Virus record (IMG/VR): IMGVR_UViG_2713896896_000002
Location: 1 to 6,915 of that record
Length of the DNA stretch: 6,915 bases
Reading direction: 5' to 3' (one strand)
Source: a virus
Taxonomy: Duplodnaviria; Heunggongvirae; Uroviricota; Caudoviricetes
Shown here one piece after another: positions 1-6,915 of the stretch. Each line of letters opens with the position of its first letter. The first letter of the stretch is position 1. Made by a program: the position numbers and the translations under genes. Below the pieces are notes generated by a model that saw only the letters and a program-made list of their open reading frames with translations, did not search any database and was not told the DNA's origin.

Positions 1-99
1 ACGCCTCGGGCTGGCTACTTAACCCCTGACCACTGCCTGGTAACTCAAAGTATTGCCCTGCGTTCTGTGGGGCGGGGAGGGTTGGTATGAAATAAAGGA

Positions 100-136
100 T
101 ACCCATAGGTATTCAAAAAGTAAATACCCATGGGTA
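100..136. promoter_or_regulatory. OL-like operator pair: two 12-bp palindromes TACCCATAGGTA (100-111) and TACCCATGGGTA (125-136)
   Basis: Second site is a perfect palindrome and the first differs at one position. Centres are 25 bp apart and sit about 45 bp beyond the 3' end of the repressor gene. The same TACC-N4-GGTA motif recurs in the repressor/cro intergenic region. Confidence 0.6.
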
Positions 137-178
137 AAATTTTGGGGTGTCTTAACTGGTGGCTGGTTGTTTGGTGAG

Positions 179-598
179 TTATGACGCGTTTTGTGCTTTC
201 TTTTTACGGATTTCTTCGTAGATCATATTGTAATACTGTTTTTTCTCTTCAAGAGTTTTTAATAAGTTATCCGTTTCACTTTCTGGCAGTTCGTCTAAGA
301 GATCTAAAAAAATACGTTGTCGTGGCGTTAGAACCCTTGTTTCATAATTGGAGGCTGTGTTCGTTGATGATGAAACGATACCATCCATCCATCCCCGGGG
401 TAACCCAAAGGACTCTTCGATAATCTCCACCATATCATCAGCGATCCGTTTTTTTCCTTTTTTCCCCTCTGGGTACAACATTCTTGATACATAAGAAGGC
501 TCGCGACCGATCTTTCTGGCCACGTTAACCGCTTTACCATCGCATTTCTCATCACGAATTTTGATGAGTTGCTGTCGTCTAAATTCATATTTGTCCAT
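179..598 (-). CDS. Prophage immunity repressor, XRE/Cro-CI family HTH, short form (139 aa) with no S24 peptidase domain
   Basis: ORF 179-640 on the minus strand. The HTH pattern (RRQQLIKIRDEK..GKAVNVARKIGREPSYVSRM...FGLPRGWMDG) fits XRE-family spacing if translation starts at Met15 (ATG = complement of 596-598); the longer ORF would start at 640 inside an operator. No Ser/Lys autocleavage domain: the protein ends about 80 aa after the HTH. Divergent from a cro-like gene, as for RacR/YdaS. No obvious SD for either start. Confidence 0.75.
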   Translation of the reverse strand: MDKYEFRRQQLIKIRDEKCDGKAVNVARKIGREPSYVSRMLYPEGKKGKKRIADDMVEIIEESFGLPRGWMDGIVSSSTNTASNYETRVLTPRQRIFLDLLDELPESETDNLLKTLEEKKQYYNMIYEEIRKKKAQNAS

Positions 599-699
599 AG
601 GTAAATAATAGATGCGATTACCGCAAGGTAAACAACCCATAGGTATTGACTTTTGTTTACCTGTGGGTATTCTTGACCGTAGTTTACTAAGGAGTAGCC
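599..699. promoter_or_regulatory. OR-like divergent control region: operator sites TACCGCAAGGTA (619-630, degenerate), AACCCATAGGTA (634-645), TACCTGTGGGTA (658-669); rightward promoter -35 TTGACT (646-651), -10 TATTCT (668-673)
   Basis: Three copies of the TACC-N4-GGTA palindrome lie between the divergent repressor and cro-like genes. A sigma70-like -35/-10 pair with 16-bp spacer overlaps site 658-669, and an AAGGAG Shine-Dalgarno (689-694) precedes the cro ATG at 700. The leftward repressor promoter was not confidently located. Confidence 0.6.
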
Positions 700-981
700 A
701 TGGAAGAATTAAGAATATTTCTCAATTCTCTTTCGTCAGATGAACAGCGTATGTTTGCATGTGAGTGTGGTACTAGCATCGGTTATCTAAGAAAGGCATT
801 GAGTAAAGGTCAAGTGTTAGGGGCATCGTTATGTGTCCTTATTGAGCGAGCCAGTAATGGTGAAGTTACACGTCAGCAACTAAGGCCTTTTGATTGGATG
901 AATATTTGGCCCGAGCTGGAAGATACCAAAACGTTAACACAACCACTTTCCAGGAGCTTGATTCATGATAATCAAGCATGA
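700..981 (+). CDS. Cro-like / YdaS-family HTH regulator (93 aa)
   Basis: First rightward gene after the operators, with a good SD. Sequence features (FACECGTSIGYLRKA..., ERASNGEV, LRPFDW) resemble the YdaS/Cro-like family as I recall it. Its 3' end overlaps the next gene by 17 nt. Confidence 0.7.
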   Translation: MEELRIFLNSLSSDEQRMFACECGTSIGYLRKALSKGQVLGASLCVLIERASNGEVTRQQLRPFDWMNIWPELEDTKTLTQPLSRSLIHDNQA

Positions 982-1390
982 GCACATCCGCATGGTGATG
1001 AATGCCTGGGCGCATCCGGACGGTGAAAAAGTTCCGGCGGCTGAAATAACCCGGGCTTATTTTGAGCTGGGTATGACGTTCCCGGAATTATATGACGACA
1101 GCCATCCTGAAGCCCTGGCTCGCAATACTCAGAAAATTTTCCGCTGGGTGGAGAAAGACACCCCTGATGCGGTTAAAAAAATTCAGGCGTTGTTACCAGC
1201 GATCGAAAAGGCAATGCCGCCTCTGCTGGTGGCCCGAATGCGCAGTCACAGTTCAGCCTATTTTCGGGAGCTGCTGGAGACGCGGGAGCGGCTGGTGAGG
1301 GATGCAGATGATTTTATTGCGGTGGCAATTGCTGGTTTCAACCAGATTAATCGCGGTGGCCCGGCAGGAAATGCCGTGGTGATGCACTAA
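965..1390 (+). CDS. YdaT-like protein (cII-position regulator of Rac-like prophages), 141 aa
   Basis: N-terminus MIIKHEHI... and overall size match my recollection of E. coli Rac YdaT (about 140 aa, starting MKIKHEHI). SD AGGAG at 950-954. Position immediately after cro is typical of cII analogues. Confidence 0.65.
   Translation: MIIKHEHIRMVMNAWAHPDGEKVPAAEITRAYFELGMTFPELYDDSHPEALARNTQKIFRWVEKDTPDAVKKIQALLPAIEKAMPPLLVARMRSHSSAYFRELLETRERLVRDADDFIAVAIAGFNQINRGGPAGNAVVMH
1225..1232 (+). other. Chi site GCTGGTGG
   Basis: Exact octamer on the + strand; two more copies occur at 6339-6346 and 6396-6403. Confidence 0.7.
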
Positions 1391-1413
1391 AAGCACGGTG
1401 TTCGGGGTTTTTT

Positions 1414-2376
1414 ATGAGCAGCAAGCTTCATGGTCTTGTCTGGGAAGGGTGTGCCTTCACCGGCATGATCTTATCCAGGGTGGCAGTGATGGCTCGTCTT
1501 GCAGACTACAGCAATGATGAAGGTGTGTCATGGCCTGCAGTAGAGACCATTCGTCGTCAGATTGGGGCAAAGAGTGAATCAACGGTTAAAGCGGCGATAG
1601 CGGAACTGGAAAAAAGCGGCTGGCTGACAAAGGAAGAGCGTAAGGTTGGCGGACGTAACGTAAGCAATATCTACCGGCTTAATGTGGAAAAACTCGAAGC
1701 TGCAGCAGCGGCGGCGCGAGAGGCATATAAACCGAAAAGAAAAATTAGCCCGGCAAAAAATGACCCGTTAACGGTTGACCCGTCAAATATTGACCCCTCA
1801 ACGGTTGACCCGTCAAATTTTGATGGATCAACCGTTGATAAAAAACGGTCGGTTAGGGGGGCGATGATTGACCCCGATCCGTCAGTATTAAAATCTGATC
1901 CATCAGATAAAAGATCTTCTTGTCCGGACGCTTCGCAACCGGACCCGCAGACGGCTGAACAGGATTTTTTTACCCGACACCCTGATGCGGTTGTGTTCAG
2001 TGCGAAAAAACGCCAGTGGGGAAGTCAGGAAGATTTGGCGTGCGCACAGTGGATCTGGGGACGAATCGTGAGTCTTTACGAGCAGGCGGCCAGCGATGAT
2101 GGCGAGATCACGCGACCGAAAGAACCAAACTGGACCGCGTGGGCCAATGACGTGCGCACAATGCGGATGCTGGATGGCAGAACTCACAGACAAATTTGCG
2201 AAATGTTTGGGCGGGTACAGCGGGATCCATTCTGGGTAAAAAACATCATGAGCCCGTCAAAGCTCCGCGAAAAATGGGACGAACTGGTCATCCGCCTGGG
2301 GCGTTCACCTGTACAGCGTTGTGTGAATCATATTTCTGAACCGGACACCGAAATTCCTCCGGGGTTCAGGGGGTAA
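1414..2376 (+). CDS. Replication initiation protein (lambda O analogue) with N-terminal winged-helix DNA-binding domain and DnaT-like C-terminus
   Basis: 320-aa ORF. The N-terminal region (VSWPAVETIRRQIGAKSESTVKAAIAELEKSGWL) looks like a winged helix. The C-terminal SEPDTEIPPGFRG closely matches the C-terminal end of E. coli DnaT as I recall it. Internal iterons encode a repetitive DPSNIDPSTVDPSNFDGSTVD linker. The gene is directly followed by a dnaC homologue, mirroring the host dnaT-dnaC operon. No clear SD for the ATG at 1414. Confidence 0.8.
   Translation: MSSKLHGLVWEGCAFTGMILSRVAVMARLADYSNDEGVSWPAVETIRRQIGAKSESTVKAAIAELEKSGWLTKEERKVGGRNVSNIYRLNVEKLEAAAAAAREAYKPKRKISPAKNDPLTVDPSNIDPSTVDPSNFDGSTVDKKRSVRGAMIDPDPSVLKSDPSDKRSSCPDASQPDPQTAEQDFFTRHPDAVVFSAKKRQWGSQEDLACAQWIWGRIVSLYEQAASDDGEITRPKEPNWTAWANDVRTMRMLDGRTHRQICEMFGRVQRDPFWVKNIMSPSKLREKWDELVIRLGRSPVQRCVNHISEPDTEIPPGFRG
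1760..1831. repeat. Iteron array inside the replication gene: five copies of TTGAYNNNTCAA-type 12-mer at 15-bp periodicity
   Basis: Copies at 1760-1771 (degenerate), 1775-1786, 1790-1801, 1805-1816 and 1820-1831. There is an exact 19-bp direct repeat AACGGTTGACCCGTCAAAT at 1770-1788 and 1800-1818. Each unit is an inverted repeat, TTGAC-CC-GTCAA. Confidence 0.75.
1832..1920. other. Putative origin unwinding region: A/T-rich tract with clustered GATC sites adjacent to the iterons
   Basis: GATAAAAAACGG followed by GATCCGTCAGTATTAAAATCTGATCCATCAGATAAAAGATCTTCT. GATC at 1876-1879, 1897-1900 and 1913-1916, with a direct repeat GATCCRTCAG. The layout parallels the lambda origin lying inside gene O. 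Confidence 0.55.
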
Positions 2377-2382
2377 CGAACC

Positions 2383-3129
2383 ATGAAAAATATTGCGACA
2401 GGCGGCGTTCTGGAACGTATCCGCAGACTGACCCCGCCACATGTAACCGCCCCATTCAGAACGGTAGCGGAGTGGCGCGAGTGGCAACTTGCTGAAGGCC
2501 AGAAGCGTAGCGAGGAGATCAACCGCCTGAATCGCCAGTTGCGGGTGGAAAAAATTCTGAATCGCTCAGGCATCCAGCCGTTGCACCGTAAATGCTCGTT
2601 TGCGAATTACCATGTACAGAACGACGGCCAGCGATACGCGTTAAGTCAGGCGAAATCCATCGCTGATGAACTGATGACCGGATGCACAAATTTCGCGTTC
2701 AGCGGAAAACCTGGTACCGGAAAAAACCATCTGGCGGCGGCTATCGGGAATCGCCTGCTGAAAGACGGCCAGACAGTGATAGTGGTTACTGTGGCTGATG
2801 TTATGAGTGCCCTGCACGCCAGCTATGACGACGGGCAGTCAGGCGAAAAATTTTTGCGGGAACTGTGCGAAGTGGATCTGCTGGTTCTTGATGAAATTGG
2901 CATTCAGCGTGAGACGAAAAACGAGCAGGTGGTGCTGCATCAGATTGTTGATCGCCGGACAGCATCGATGCGCAGTATGGGGATGCTGACAAACCTGAAC
3001 TATGAGGCCATGAAAACGTTGCTCGGCGAGAGGATTATGGATCGCATGACCATGAACGGCGGGCGCTGGGTGACTTTTAACTGGGAAAGCTGGCGCCCGA
3101 ATGTCGTCCAGCCAGGAATCACGAAGTGA
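2383..3129 (+). CDS. DnaC-family helicase loader (lambda P-position replication protein), AAA+ ATPase
   Basis: Walker [18 protein letters not shown] and Walker [10 protein letters not shown]. Strong end-to-end resemblance to E. coli DnaC as recalled (N-terminal MKN..., RSGIQPLH, C-terminal [22 protein letters not shown]...[10 protein letters not shown]). SD AGGGGG 9 nt upstream of the ATG. Confidence 0.92.
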
Positions 3130-3151
3130 TTTTTACCGGGAGGAAATTTTA

Positions 3152-3913
3152 ATGGAGACTGTTTTTGACGCACTGAAAGCGATGGGAAAGGCCACATCCA
3201 TAGAACTTGCTGCGCGACTTGATATCAGTCGTGAAGAGGTACTGAATGAGCTGTGGGAACTGAAAAAATCTGGTTTCGTTGATAAAACCGCGTACACCTG
3301 GCGTGTGGCTGGTAGCAATGCTCAGCAGGAACAAGCATCCCGGGCTGAATTTCATGAAGAAACTACCACGGCAACAGTAGCGAAAATCTCAGAGTGCGAT
3401 TTAACGGCGACGATTGAACAACGCGGACCACAAACGGCTGATGAGCTGGCTACGCTGTTCGGTATCACATCACGCAAAGTGGCTTCAACGTTGGCTCAGG
3501 CAATCAGCAAAGGTCGCCTGATTCGCGTAAATCAGAACGGTAAATTTCGTTACTGCATGCCGGACGATAATTTACCAGCAGAGCCGAAAGCCGCATTGGT
3601 AACGGAAACAGATGGTAAAGCCTTTCCTCAGCCAGCAGGTGTTGCGTTACCAGCACAGGAAACTGTAACACAGGAAGAAATTAAAACAGAAACTGTGGCG
3701 GACATTGTGCAGTCGCTGCCATCGTTCACCGAAACGCGGGCGGATGACCTGATTTTACCATCGCTGCATCTGGCAAACCGCGAACTGCGCCGGGCGAAAA
3801 ATCATGTCCAGAAGTGGGAGCGCGTCTGCGCCGCGCTGCGGGAGCTGAATAAACACCGGGATATTGTCCGACAGATTGTCGATTCCTCCAGTCGCGTTGT
3901 GTCGGAAAGGTGA
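3152..3913 (+). CDS. Hypothetical phage protein with two winged-helix-like repeats and a charged, probably coiled-coil C-terminus (253 aa; possibly DUF1627-like)
   Basis: Start placed at ATG 3152 because of SD GGGAGG at 3138-3143; the track ORF from 3101 would overlap dnaC-like. Two similar HTH-like segments ([30 protein letters not shown] and [32 protein letters not shown]). The family name is a tentative recollection. Confidence 0.7.
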
Positions 3914-3920
3914 GGCACTT

Positions 3921-4337
3921 ATGAGAAACGTTTTTACACCTGAATATCGGGAGCAACTGAAGGCGCGTATTGTGGAACTGGTGCGCAGAGATGGGAGGAA
4001 AACACGTAAGCAACTGGAGGATGAAACCGGAGCAACGAGACACCTGATAGAAGTTCTGGCGAAAGAGCTGGTAGTTAGTGGCACGCTATATGGTTCAGGC
4101 CATGGAATATTTCCTTCAGAACAGGCTCGTAAGGACTGGATAAAAGCCTGCAAAAAAATGTCGAGAGCGGCAGTGAAAAAGAAGAGCGACCCTGACCTGA
4201 TTTATTCATTGCCAGATGGTGAAATACGCCGTTACAACAGGAGACAGAACATAATTTGCCGAGAGTGCCGTCAGAGCGAAACTATGCAGCGCGTGCTGGC
4301 TTTCTGGAAGGGAAGTTTGCAGGAGGTGGTACTGTGA
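3921..4337 (+). CDS. Hypothetical protein (138 aa), basic, with N-terminal HTH-like segment
   Basis: Start at ATG 3921 with SD AAGGTGAGG (3907-3915) 5 nt upstream; the track start 3864 lacks an SD and overlaps the upstream gene. Tightly linked to the preceding ORF (7-nt gap), suggesting co-translation in one operon. Confidence 0.65.
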   Translation: MRNVFTPEYREQLKARIVELVRRDGRKTRKQLEDETGATRHLIEVLAKELVVSGTLYGSGHGIFPSEQARKDWIKACKKMSRAAVKKKSDPDLIYSLPDGEIRRYNRRQNIICRECRQSETMQRVLAFWKGSLQEVVL

Positions 4338-4464
4338 GCCAAATTAACAATCAGGACTGCGTGAAGTGAAAGAGAAAACATAATTCAAATCTGAATAATT
4401 AATCTCAGCACTGTAAATAAAATTTAATCCTTAACAGGAGGGATTCCTGCACCCTCAAAACATC

Positions 4465-4498
4465 AGGAGGCCGCCCGAAAGGGCGGTAATGAAAAATG
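4465..4498 (+). promoter_or_regulatory. Structured translation-initiation leader: SD AGGAGG (4465-4470), hairpin CCGCCC-GAAA-GGGCGG (4471-4486), start ATG 4496
   Basis: Perfect 6-bp GC stem with GAAA tetraloop sits exactly between a consensus SD and the start codon. Linear spacing is 25 nt, but about 9 nt if the hairpin is formed. A second weaker hairpin GAGGG-N9-CCCTC lies at 4438-4456. Confidence 0.5.
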
Positions 4499-4903
4499 AC
4501 TGAATTAACAAAAGAGCAATTAATCGAAGAAGCTAAATTAAAAATAGCGATTGCGAAATGCCACCCCAATTCAGGGGTGGCACGAGTAGAGGGTGAGTTA
4601 TTCAAAATTGCTCTGGCATCGCTGGAAGCAGAGCCGATAGCGTGGGAATACGGCGAAAACATAATCCTGTTTAATCCTGACACAGTTGAAGCATACGCAA
4701 AACGTGCAGAGATAACACCTAAACCTCTATTCACCGCTACACCTGTGTCACTGACACCAGAAGGATTGATTAAAGCAGTGCGTTTCTATGAACAGGTTAA
4801 GCGTGAAAATCCGCCAGTCGAAACCGGAGCATGGAAAGACGCGGTTGACTGGGTGCTCAAAGAGGCCTGTCGTGCAGCCATGCTTAAGGGAGATAAATCA
4901 TGA
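4496..4903 (+). CDS. Hypothetical protein (135 aa)
   Basis: Clean ORF. Its stop overlaps the next start in an ATGA arrangement (4900-4903). Preceded by a 158-bp AT-rich intergenic region and the structured leader. No family recognised. Confidence 0.65.
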   Translation: MTELTKEQLIEEAKLKIAIAKCHPNSGVARVEGELFKIALASLEAEPIAWEYGENIILFNPDTVEAYAKRAEITPKPLFTATPVSLTPEGLIKAVRFYEQVKRENPPVETGAWKDAVDWVLKEACRAAMLKGDKS

Positions 4904-5247
4904 TTAATCGAACCAAACTGGAGCACATCCTTGAGTATGCCTGGCAGCAGAGGCATTTGGGTCAGCACTGTAAAATTCCACCAGGAGATATGGTTGAAAT
5001 CGTGGAGATTGCCATGCGTAAGACTGGCAACTCTCCGGTAACTTCGGGCGGTTGGATAAGCTGTAGTGAGCGAATGCCAGGTGATGGTCAGCACGTAATT
5101 ATTTTATGTGATGGCGCATTCGTTCTTCATGCGCAATATCGAGACGGTGAGTTTTTCGATATTGTCCGCAATGGTAATGAATTTTTTGAAACACAGAGCC
5201 GCAATGTAACCGACTGGATGCCGCTACCAGAACCACGAAGGAGGTGA
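4900..5247 (+). CDS. DUF551-like phage protein (115 aa)
   Basis: C-terminal pattern GGWISCSERMPGDGQHVIILC...DGEFFDIV...VTDWMPLPEP matches my recollection of the DUF551 signature (W..P....V.....g....DWMPLPEP). Start overlaps the upstream stop, suggesting translational coupling. Confidence 0.65.
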   Translation: MINRTKLEHILEYAWQQRHLGQHCKIPPGDMVEIVEIAMRKTGNSPVTSGGWISCSERMPGDGQHVIILCDGAFVLHAQYRDGEFFDIVRNGNEFFETQSRNVTDWMPLPEPRRR

Positions 5248-5251
5248 ATCA

Positions 5252-5323
5252 ATGAGCTGGCCTGAGGCATTCACAACAGTAGGTATTGTACTGGCGGTGT
5301 ATTCGATTTGCCGCTGGGGGTAA
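5252..5323 (+). CDS. Small ORF, 23 aa, predicted single-pass hydrophobic peptide (MSWPEAFTTVGIVLAVYSICRWG)
   Basis: Not in the ORF track. Near-perfect SD AAGGAGGTGA (5238-5247) with 7-nt spacing to ATG 5252; stop TAA 5321-5323. It sits directly after the DUF551 gene in the same orientation. Confidence 0.5.
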   Translation: MSWPEAFTTVGIVLAVYSICRWG

Positions 5324-5329
5324 GGTATT

Positions 5330-5373
5330 AAAAAACGCCCCGCACACATAAGTTGGGCGCCTGAGATGCGGGG
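5330..5373 (-). terminator. Putative intrinsic terminator oriented for leftward (minus-strand) transcription
   Basis: 7-bp GC-rich stem CCCCGCA (5338-5344) / TGCGGGG (5367-5373). On the minus strand the stem is followed by CG then TTTTTT (complement of A-run 5330-5335). The loop is long (22 nt) and may fold further. There is no T-run after it on the plus strand. Confidence 0.4.
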
Positions 5374-5484
5374 ATAGGGAGTTGGTTAAATAGTTATACA
5401 ACAATACTTGATTTTGCATTGAAGCAAGGAGGAGATTGCCACATATTGAATCATGCACGTGTACGTCAAATGTGGGAGGTCATC

Positions 5485-5574
5485 GTGCTGGTTCTGAAAT
5501 GTGCGCTGGCTATTGCGGCTGTAATGGCAATTTATTGTCTTGTTATTGTTCTTATGAATCACCTCTCTGATTGA
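5485..5574 (+). CDS. Small ORF, 29 aa, very hydrophobic peptide (MLVLKCALAIAAVMAIYCLVIVLMNHLSD); candidate small membrane toxin-like peptide
   Basis: Not in the ORF track. SD GGGAGG (5474-5479) is 5 nt upstream of GTG 5485; an in-frame ATG at 5470 without SD would give 34 aa. Stop TGA 5572-5574. Composition resembles type I toxin peptides (single TM helix, short polar tail). Confidence 0.45.
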   Translation: MLVLKCALAIAAVMAIYCLVIVLMNHLSD

Positions 5575-5581
5575 TTTTATA

Positions 5582-5610
5582 TTGGCGAGGTGACGTGAGT
5601 TAAGTAGAAT
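5582..5610 (+). promoter_or_regulatory. Putative hok mRNA promoter: -35 TTGGCG (5582-5587), 17-bp spacer, -10 TAGAAT (5605-5610)
   Basis: Sigma70-like elements positioned so that transcription would start near 5617, at the GGGTGCTTGAGGC element typical of hok-family mRNA 5' ends. Confidence 0.5.
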
Positions 5611-5659
5611 TGCTGCGGGTGCTTGAGGCTATCTGTCTCAGGCATGAACACCAAAAGGC

Positions 5660-5750
5660 AGATAGAGAAAAGCCCCAGTTAACATTACGCGTCTTGCAGG
5701 ACGCTTAACATTAATCTGAGGCTCAATCCATGCTGAACACATGTAGGTTA
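5660..5750 (-). ncRNA. Expected position of a Sok-like antisense RNA overlapping the hok leader / mok-like start (boundaries not resolved)
   Basis: Inferred from the hok-family architecture. Candidate minus-strand promoter: -35 TTGCCT (complement of 5768-5773), -10 TAACCT (complement of 5745-5750). I could not identify a clean terminator, so the extent is approximate. Confidence 0.3.
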
Positions 5751-5786
5751 GCCTCTTACGTGCCGAAAGGCAAGGAGAAGCAGGCT

Positions 5787-5942
5787 ATGAAGCAGCAAAA
5801 GGCGATGTTAGTCGCCCTGATCGTCATCTGTTTAACCGTCATTGTTACGGCACTGGTAACGAGGAAAGACCTCTGCGAGGTACGAATCCGAACCGGTCAG
5901 ACGGAGGTCGCTGTCTTCACAGCTTACGAACCTGAGGAGTAA
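5787..5942 (+). CDS. hokD: Hok/Gef-family type I toxin (51 aa), closest in my recollection to HokD (RelF)
   Basis: MKQQKAMLVALIVICLTVIVTALVTRKDLCEVRIRTGQTEVAVFTAYEPEE carries the Hok signature (TM helix then RKDLCEVRIRTGQTEVAVFTAYE). SD AAGGAGAAG at 5772-5780. An in-frame upstream ATG at 5730 (track ORF 5730-5942) may play a mok-like coupling role. Confidence 0.85.
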   Translation: MKQQKAMLVALIVICLTVIVTALVTRKDLCEVRIRTGQTEVAVFTAYEPEE

Positions 5943-5950
5943 GAGACCAG

Positions 5951-6005
5951 GCGAGGGAGAAATCCCTCGCCACCTCTGATGAGTCAGGCATCCTCAACGC
6001 ACCCG
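5951..6005 (+). other. hok mRNA 3' structures: hairpin GCGAGGGA-GAAA-TCCCTCGC (5951-5970) and fbi-like element CCTCAACGCACCC (5993-6005) complementary to the mRNA 5' end (5617-5628)
   Basis: The 3' element is the reverse complement of GGGTGCTTGAGG at the predicted 5' end, with one bulged base. This is the hallmark 5'-3' closure of full-length hok mRNAs. The hairpin is a perfect 8-bp stem with GAAA loop. Confidence 0.6.
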
Positions 6006-6296
6006 CACTTACAACCGATGGCGCACGATACCAAATTATACAATTCTGATGATTCTGCCGTCTTTGCCAGCAGGCGCGGACGGTGTTTTCACGCATTCAA
6101 ATCTGACTGGTACCAGCATCCCCCATGCACTGAAGAACAGGCCGAATGGATAATTCAGTGTTACCGCAGGCGCGGATGCGAGGTTAAAAAAGCCCTTAGC
6201 CTCGACTACCGTCACTGGATAATCTCCGTCAGGCTCCCTTACTCCGAACGGCCGCCGCGTCCGTCCCGCACATTCCAGCAACGGATCTGGAGGTAA
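5979..6296 (+). CDS. Hypothetical protein, possibly Rem-like (Qin-prophage position between hokD and ydfU); 105 aa, or 92 aa from ATG 6018
   Basis: ORF with plausible protein-like composition (FKSDWYQHPPCTEEQAEWIIQCYRRRGCEVKK). Gene order matches hokD-rem-ydfU as I recall for E. coli K-12 Qin. No SD for either candidate start; the 5979 start would lie inside the hok mRNA 3' end. Confidence 0.5.
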   Translation: MSQASSTHPHLQPMAHDTKLYNSDDSAVFASRRGRCFHAFKSDWYQHPPCTEEQAEWIIQCYRRRGCEVKKALSLDYRHWIISVRLPYSERPPRPSRTFQQRIWR

Positions 6297-6297
6297 C

Positions 6298-6915
6298 GTG
6301 CGGGTATTACTTCGACCTGTTCTGGTACCGGAACTCGGGCTGGTGGTCCTTAAGCCTGGTCGTGAATCCATGCAGGTATTTCATAATCCTCGAGTGCTGG
6401 TGGAGCCGGAACCGAAAAGCATGCGCAGTCTGCCGTCAGGAGCTGTTCCTGCCGTTCGCCAGCCGCTCGTGGAAGATAAATCATTACTGCCATTTTTCAG
6501 CGATGAGCGGGCGATTCGTGCTGCTGGCGGCGCTGGCGCATTGTCTGACTGGCTCCTGCGTCATGTTAAATCCTGCCAGTGGCCTCATGGTGACTATCAC
6601 CACAGCGAAACCGTCATACATCGTTACGGTACCGGCGCGATGGTGTTGTGCTGGCACTGTGACAACCAGCTGCGCGACCAGACATCAGAGTCACTCGGGC
6701 AACTTGCTCAACAAAACTTGTCAGCATGGATGATTGACGTCATCCGTCACGCAATGAATGGCACACAGGAGCGGGAATTATCGCTGGCTGAATTATCCTG
6801 GTGGGCGGTCCGCAATCAGGTGGCGGACGCGCTACCGGAAGTGGTATTACGTCGTTCGCTGGGGTTGCGTGCGGAAAAAATCCGCTCAATGTACCGTGAA
6901 AGCGACATCGTACCG
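6298..6915 (+). CDS. DUF968/YdfU-like prophage protein, 5' portion (continues beyond window end)
   Basis: Open frame from GTG 6298 to the window edge (206 codons, no stop). SD GGAGG at 6289-6293. The GTG lies 1 nt after the upstream stop TAA (6294-6296). Cys/His-rich segment CQWPHGDYHHSETVIHRYGTGAMVLCWHCDNQ. The track ORF 6362-6733 is in another frame and looks spurious. Alternative start ATG 6370. Confidence 0.65.
   Translation, partial: MRVLLRPVLVPELGLVVLKPGRESMQVFHNPRVLVEPEPKSMRSLPSGAVPAVRQPLVEDKSLLPFFSDERAIRAAGGAGALSDWLLRHVKSCQWPHGDYHHSETVIHRYGTGAMVLCWHCDNQLRDQTSESLGQLAQQNLSAWMIDVIRHAMNGTQERELSLAELSWWAVRNQVADALPEVVLRRSLGLRAEKIRSMYRESDIVP
6339..6403 (+). other. Two Chi sites (GCTGGTGG) 57 bp apart at 6339-6346 and 6396-6403
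   Basis: Exact octamers in the same orientation as the site at 1225. Confidence 0.7.

Follow-up and report, generated by a model that had tools for sequence, protein, structure and literature searches.

The stretch of DNA analysed here, referred to as the window, comprises 6,915 nucleotides (positions 1 to 6,915 of IMG/VR virus record IMGVR_UViG_2713896896_000002) and represents the early-right region of a lambdoid (Rac/Qin-like) Escherichia coli prophage. It encodes a replication initiator, with a gene for a helicase loader next to it. The linker that connects the two folded domains of the initiator is encoded by short, regularly spaced DNA repeats (iterons). Together with a GATC-bearing segment and an inverted repeat to their right, these probably constitute the origin from which the prophage replicates (Table 1).

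Table 1 Features of the initiator locus and of the genes to its left, as positions in the window.
Feature	Position	Strand	Remarks
Repressor	179-640	minus	
Cro/YdaS-like gene	700-981		
CII/YdaT-like gene	965-1390		
Initiator gene, 320 residues, contains the putative origin	1414..2376	+	Open reading frame; phrog_391 'replication initiation O-like', E 1e-114; Pfam HTH_36 at residues 25-71
N-terminal winged-helix DNA-binding domain, residues ~1-104, presumed iteron reader	1414..1725	+	AlphaFold2 mean predicted local distance difference test score (pLDDT) 82
Degenerate unit 0, ATGACCCGTTAA	1760..1771		In 15-bp register; 2 mismatches to the pattern
Iteron 1, TTGACCCGTCAA	1775..1786		Perfect 12-bp palindrome
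Iteron 2, TTGACCCCTCAA	1790..1801		Identical 12-mer in Erwinia, Edwardsiella and Mixta relatives, there also as the reverse complement TTGAGGGGTCAA
Iteron 3, TTGACCCGTCAA	1805..1816		
Iteron 4, TTGATGGATCAA	1820..1831		Palindrome; holds GATC (1826)
Half unit, TTGATAAAAAAC	1835..1846		In register; left arm only
Terminal half-site, TGATTGACCCC	1865..1875		Abuts the first GATC; in relatives, the right arm of a 19-bp palindrome, GGGGTCAATGGTTGACCCC
GATC element and low-stability tract, presumed DNA-unwinding element	1876..1917		GATCCGTCAG at 1876, GATCCATCAG at 1897, AGATCT at 1912-1917
Inverted repeat GTCCGG-N11-CCGGAC	1922..1944		Right of the low-stability tract; invariant in type-A relatives sharing the C-domain
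C-terminal domain, presumed recruitment domain	1957..2292	+	BLASTP to lambda O
C-terminal tail	2311..2373	+	Matches the last 21 residues of E. coli DnaT (SEPDxxIPPGFRG)
DnaC-like AAA+ helicase loader	2383..3129	+	Pfam IstB_IS21 and Bac_DnaA

The sequence TTGAYNNNTCAA occurs exactly at 1775, 1790, 1805 and 1820, with a strict spacing of 15 bp. Seven strand-matches were found, compared with 0.14 expected, and none of 200 shuffles reached that number. A first-pass annotation of the same DNA had described five units at strict 15-bp spacing; the spacing holds, but the count does not, as the array consists of four exact (quasi-)palindromic 12-bp units plus two degenerate ones, at 1760 (two mismatches) and 1835 (left half only). 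The exact 19-bp duplicate noted in the same annotation is present (AACGGTTGACCCGTCAAAT, at 1770 and 1800) and follows the 15-bp period, and Tandem Repeats Finder reports periods of 15 and 30 across 1749-1838. The repeats correspond to nucleotides 347-433 of the initiator gene, between the regions encoding the N- and C-terminal domains, and their translation, LTVDPSNIDPSTVDPSNFDGSTVDKK, agrees with the DPS(N/T)(I/V)DPS linker read previously. When treated as single-stranded DNA, the array (1755-1925) forms one long hairpin (free energy, dG, of -31.5; z -4.55). This hairpin is a by-product of the alternating half-sites; it may have a bearing on whether a cruciform or hairpin forms at the origin, and on defence systems by which structured replication intermediates are sensed.

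To the right of the iterons lie, in order, a spacer of approximately 40 bp that ends in a half-site (1865-1875), the GATC tract (1876-1917) and the inverted repeat (1922-1944). GATC is found at 1826, inside unit 4, and at 1876, 1897 and 1913, and GATCCRTCAG occurs twice, at 1876 and 1897, exactly as the three downstream sites and the direct repeat had been reported. The same segment had been called A/T-rich. The 30-mer at 1886-1915 (23% GC) is indeed the least stable of the gene, at a dG of -31.9, whereas the 30-mers of the gene average -41.9 (standard deviation, sd, 3.1), i.e. 3.2 sd below mean stability, and it ranks eighth in the whole window; the tract is short, however. Clustering of GATC within the window alone is mildly unusual (P ~0.08 for 3 sites in 40 bp, 0.03 for 4 sites in 90 bp), and the case for this motif therefore rests on its conservation among relatives. 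The oriC 13-mer (GATCTnTTnTTTT) has one match with two mismatches in this region, on the minus strand at 1904-1916, beside the single AGATCT at 1912; two equal or better matches occur in the window outside the origin. An exact DnaA box (TTWTNCACA) at 1683-1691 was rejected as a chance occurrence, being absent at that position in 18/18 relatives. No match to the integration host factor consensus was found anywhere in the window, and Rfam and tRNA scans gave no match at the origin locus, the only hit being sok, far downstream.

The locus was compared with 19 homologues from phages and about ten enterobacterial genera. The phage homologues, among them SfIV, SfII, phiP27, YeP1, phiNP and Klebsiella phages, are ~50% identical in the N-terminal domain, and twelve further loci, from Mixta, Erwinia, Morganella, Edwardsiella, Symbiopectobacterium, Citrobacter and others, show 51-77% identity. 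The first-pass annotation had named an absence of the repeats from orthologous initiators as a refutation, and it was found that they do recur in orthologous and paralogous initiators: 19/19 homologues, and every intact gene, carry an array at the equivalent position, upstream of a conserved GATC element. This array is phased at 15 bp in most of them, and repeats a 42-bp unit in one locus (L022). Iteron sequence goes with the subfamily of the N-domain: the iterons read TTGACCCNTCAA, or the reverse complement TTGAGGGGTCAA, in subfamily A, AAATCTGACSCRTCA in subfamily B and CCTCCAGAATCTGGAGG in subfamily C. Differences in copy number amount to whole units. Of 80 close relatives (IMG/VR E. coli, L026-L105), seven have a 15-bp deletion and one a 21-bp deletion, and it is unit 0 (1760) that is missing from the seven 15-bp variants; two Edwardsiella loci belonging to two species (L018 and L020) differ by 45 bp.

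The GATC element is retained with similar consistency. At least two GATC sites, 12-24 bp apart, are present in 19/19 family members, and three in 14/19. The family consensus to the right of the array reads GATCCRYMAG, 12-24 bp, GATCC, usually followed by AAAGATCT, and the third GATC takes the form AGA-TCT, AAG-ATC-TCT or GAT-CTT, which corresponds to three codon phases. This conservation across the family argues for a function of the element, in which Dam, SeqA, the initiator or simple destabilisation of the duplex may be involved. An adenine methylase gene is located next to, or one gene past, the initiator in phages 733R5, YeP1, phiNP and Klebsiella phage 1 LV-2017 (L003, L007, L010 and L011), the origins of which carry the conserved GATC pair. 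A methyltransferase is also found near the initiator of phage HannyBb, which lacks the GATC pair and has an unrelated N-domain; the downstream Dam-like methylases were therefore not counted as specific support for Dam. At the position equivalent to 1922-1944, other members carry different inverted repeats (GTCAGGC-N6-GCCTGAC, GGTTGCG-N1-CGCAACC or TCGTCA-N8-TGACGA), and lambda also has one. Five members have no inverted repeat of at least 6 bp there, and a 6-bp arm is near chance for a single sequence.

Drift in copy number would be expected if the repeat were only a low-complexity peptide linker (a DPSxx pentapeptide) that arose by replication slippage and had no function as DNA. The unit length is a multiple of 3 bp, and the product is a flexible, Pro/Ser/Asp-rich linker between two folded domains, both of which fit this explanation. 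However, the codons used are fixed, with Ser as TCA and Asp as GAC in the iterons and as GAT in the GATC element. In the linkers, 51% of Ser codons are TCA and 30% TCT, whereas elsewhere in these genes each accounts for 12% (these and the following counts are without phylogenetic correction), while Asp is encoded by GAT in 55/55 cases in the GATC element and by GAC in 70% of cases in the arrays (36% GAC elsewhere). Among same-amino-acid pairs, the fraction with the same codon is 0.75 for the iterons and 0.89 for the GATC element, so that synonymous conservation exceeds that of the folded domains (0.48 for the N-domain and 0.52 for the C-domain). The same 12-mer is moreover found in either orientation within one array, whereby D-P-S/P becomes E-G-S/L, and the units are palindromic, a property that is meaningless for a peptide. 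We consider it very improbable that the repeats serve the protein alone. On sequence grounds, the preserved synonymous codons, the reverse-complement motifs that alter the peptide and the three codon phases of the third GATC show purifying selection at the DNA level on both the repeats and the GATC element.

The N-domain and its repeats form a cassette that is fused to at least three different C-terminal domains. Conversely, HannyBb (L002) has its unrelated N-domain on the same C-domain, with 90% DNA identity from 1909 onward, and carries five 23-bp repeats (CATCRGGTCAAAATG...) at the equivalent gene position (2846-2961 of its locus). No loader gene follows the HannyBb initiator. Where phages have only the C-terminal half in common with this gene, their Megablast alignments begin at 1876 or 1909, i.e. 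at the putative origin. An origin-specific N-terminal half and a recruitment C-terminal half that are swapped at the origin is the classical picture of lambdoid O genes. The exact start of these alignments to phages with other N-terminal halves, and the fact that the segment joins different N- and C-modules, could also mean that the GATC/junction segment is a mere recombination 'linker', kept alike by exchange between mosaic phages and with no part in unwinding or methylation. The distant subfamily C differs in the surrounding sequence and in the peptide, and yet keeps the GATC sites, their spacing (15-24 bp) and AAAGATCT, in another reading phase. This suggests selection at the level of the motif rather than recent exchange, and a segment maintained by recombination only is in our view improbable. 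The two explanations are compatible, as a conserved origin core would itself supply the homology for exchange.

The AlphaFold2 model of the N-terminal domain consists of four helices, a β-hairpin wing and a further helix, and its best fold matches are dimeric, operator-binding winged-helix regulators of the ArsR, MarR and PadR families. BLASTP detected no similarity between this domain and the N-terminal domain of lambda O, and the only Pfam match is HTH_36. In contrast, initiator residues 182-293 align with residues 171-270 of lambda O (39% identity over 112 residues, E 3e-25), an alignment that establishes true homology between the two C-terminal domains. The DnaT-like tail is common to the Rac protein YdaU, and the loader shares 95% identity with K-12 Rac YdaV and 50% with host DnaC. 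At the DNA level, the initiator/loader junction (2373-2385) aligns with both the dnaT-dnaC and ydaU-ydaV junctions, which suggests that 'tail plus DnaC' is a portable module. Relatives without any loader gene (SfIV, Flotzy and L022) also keep the tail. A docking peptide for the loader or the helicase is a possible role for it.

The first-pass annotation had likened the locus to the lambda arrangement, in which ori lies within O (for the anatomy of that origin, see PMC6022878 and PMC7466680). This is supported by the position within the gene, the C-domain homology, the downstream loader, the phased repeats that are kept among relatives and the covariation of iteron and N-domain. The repeats at nucleotides 347-433 of the initiator gene compare with four annotated iterons at nucleotides 349-433 of O. 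Both loci present at least four dyad-symmetric repeats, then an easily melted tract, then an inverted repeat, and both initiators have a homologous C-domain and a loader gene next to them. The differences lie in the parts. The N-domain belongs to HTH_36 and is unlike that of lambda O; the units are 12 bp long and recur every 15 bp, whereas those of lambda are 18-19 bp long at 20-24 bp (20, 24 and 23); and the loader is a DnaC/IstB-type AAA+ protein instead of lambda P, with a DnaT-like tail on the initiator. In addition, the tract contains conserved GATC sites, of which there are none in the lambda ori segment compared, and a spacer of ~40 bp separates it from the last full iteron. The locus is a variant of the known lambdoid design, in an arrangement that a phage biologist would expect, although its sites follow one another unusually closely, at 15 bp.

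Based on these comparisons, we assign a probability of about 0.8 to the reading that 1760-1944 is the vegetative (theta) replication origin of this lambdoid E. coli prophage, situated in the interdomain linker of its own initiator gene. The repeats could instead be protein-binding sites without being an origin, i.e. sites for autoregulation, copy control (handcuffing) or another phage regulator, with initiation occurring elsewhere. Plasmid iterons also act in control, the start of synthesis is placed here by sequence comparison, and the window has four further 12-bp palindromes that are evidently operators. These palindromes (TACCYRTRGGTA, at 100-111, 125-136, 634-645 and 658-669; 0.14 expected) are probably the immunity operators, two lying between the divergent repressor and cro-like genes and two past the 3' end of the repressor gene, a layout that is possibly suited to looping. 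The initiator repeats, in contrast, occupy a position identical to that of the mapped lambda origin and adjoin a conserved low-stability element and an inverted repeat. No sigma-70 promoter was found in or near them, no second repeat array or AT-rich candidate was seen in the replication operon, and at least three different C-terminal modules are joined exactly at the GATC element. A purely regulatory role is accordingly given little weight.

Several observations count against an origin at this position. Lambda has a longer (39-bp) and more extreme low-stability tract, and ~40 bp of ordinary sequence separate the tract here from the last full iteron. Mutated iterons, e.g. TTGCCCCCTCAA and TTGACCAGTCAA, occur in some close relatives, and many copies may therefore sit in decaying prophages. 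The high synonymous conservation could in part reflect recombination at a mosaic joint, as opposed to selection. A literature search found no experiment on this initiator family, and binding, unwinding and autonomous replication are inferred; searches with the motif strings, oriJ and iterons with a DnaC-type loader likewise returned no description of the origin or its motifs. Finally, the sole small circular record with the module, a 'plasmid' of 16 kb (L106, NZ_CP148542.1, 15,977 bp), has a frame-disrupted initiator and lends no support; it was set aside as evidence for autonomous replication, being unusable either way. That record contains only the immunity-replication-lysis segment of this prophage, with no other replicon typing, and its initiator shows two homopolymer-length differences (CCCC to CCC and AAAA to AAAAA). 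Either a lambda-dv-like circle read with sequencing errors or a faulty assembly could account for it.

If 1760-1944 acts as the origin, derepression would lead to rightward transcription and hence to expression of the initiator and the DnaC-like loader. The N-terminal winged-helix domain would bind, as dimers, to the 12-bp quasi-palindromes, i.e. four strong and two weak sites 15 bp apart, with the terminal half-site abutting the GATC element. The resulting nucleoprotein array would destabilise the adjacent GATC-bearing tract of 30-40 bp (about 1884-1917). Homology and gene order suggest that the lambda-O-like C-domain and the DnaT-like tail would then bring in the DnaC-like loader with host DnaB. 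The GATC sites in the unwinding region are a likely target of Dam methylation and SeqA, which would add a speculative layer of control. The period of 15 bp had been equated with about 1.5 helical turns and sites on alternating faces; as arithmetic this holds (1.43 turns, about 154 degrees). With neighbours on nearly opposite sides, a continuous spiral array would be more plausible than the wrapped O-some of lambda. It is conceivable, although we regard it as unlikely, that the locus represents a distinct architecture altogether: a spiral filament of winged-helix dimers at 15-bp pitch in place of an O-some, an unwinding element gated by GATC methylation, and a cassette portable onto at least three recruitment domains. 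Under such an architecture, gating may operate through Dam, through SeqA or through methylation-sensitive binding of the initiator to the GATCCRTCAG repeats. If true, methylation-gated unwinding would tie prophage replication to the methylation cycle of the host.

A number of other replication systems invite comparison. The K-12 prophage Rac (ydaU-ydaV), which is reported to have an active origin, oriJ (PMC3945230), shares the operon order of repressor, YdaS-like, YdaT-like, initiator, YdaV-like and DUF1627/DUF977 genes, the near-identical loader and the initiator tail. We considered YdaU as an orthologue with a known origin and rejected it. It is a DUF1376 protein unrelated to the initiator except for its last 19 residues, and Tandem Repeats Finder finds no comparable array in ydaU; as only the tail is shared, oriJ belongs to a different initiator. 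Similarities to Vibrio cholerae oriII (RctB) and P1 oriR consist of short, close-packed initiator sites and/or a GATC-studded unwinding region. RctB binds GATC-containing 11/12-mers well only when they are fully methylated (PMC2865523), and P1 replication needs methylated DNA, as cited in that paper. There is however no protein homology to either system, most GATC sites here lie beside the main iterons and not within them, and the locus has no conserved DnaA box, unlike oriII, P1 oriR and oriC. As for the host dnaT-dnaC pair, the likeness is confined to the last 21 residues of the initiator, the downstream gene and the junction DNA, with no relationship to DnaT in the rest of the initiator. 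The function of DnaT itself is in PriA-dependent restart and not at iteron origins.

Downstream of the loader, the window continues with DUF1627 and DUF977/Ren-like genes and, farther on, a complete hok/sok type I toxin-antitoxin locus (5617-5942), in which an Rfam sok match (118.9 bits) overlaps the leader of a HokD-like open reading frame (5787-5942). The closest copy of the initiator gene in a complete genome is 98.8% identical and adjoins dicB and ydfC. At least 80% of the gene is found in 1514/5426 complete E. coli genomes, with relatives in Shigella, Klebsiella, Yersinia, Citrobacter and Stx-phage genomes.

The locus differs from lambda, in the respects tested, in its DNA-binding domain and iteron sequence, its 15-bp pitch and its DnaC-type loader with a DnaT-like tail, together with a conserved GATC element. 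A putative origin that is common in E. coli prophages (1514/5426 genomes for the gene) was undescribed in the literature searched. It offers a natural and clear-cut instance of one coding sequence constrained both as protein and as DNA, and a test case for the effects of iteron spacing (15 bp compared with about 22 bp) and GATC methylation on origin opening. Lamassu has been found enriched at the iterons of the lambda O gene during replication (PMC12663957), which makes locating other prophage origins useful for studies of immunity. The putative origin would also provide a defined cis element for building or curing prophages of this kind.

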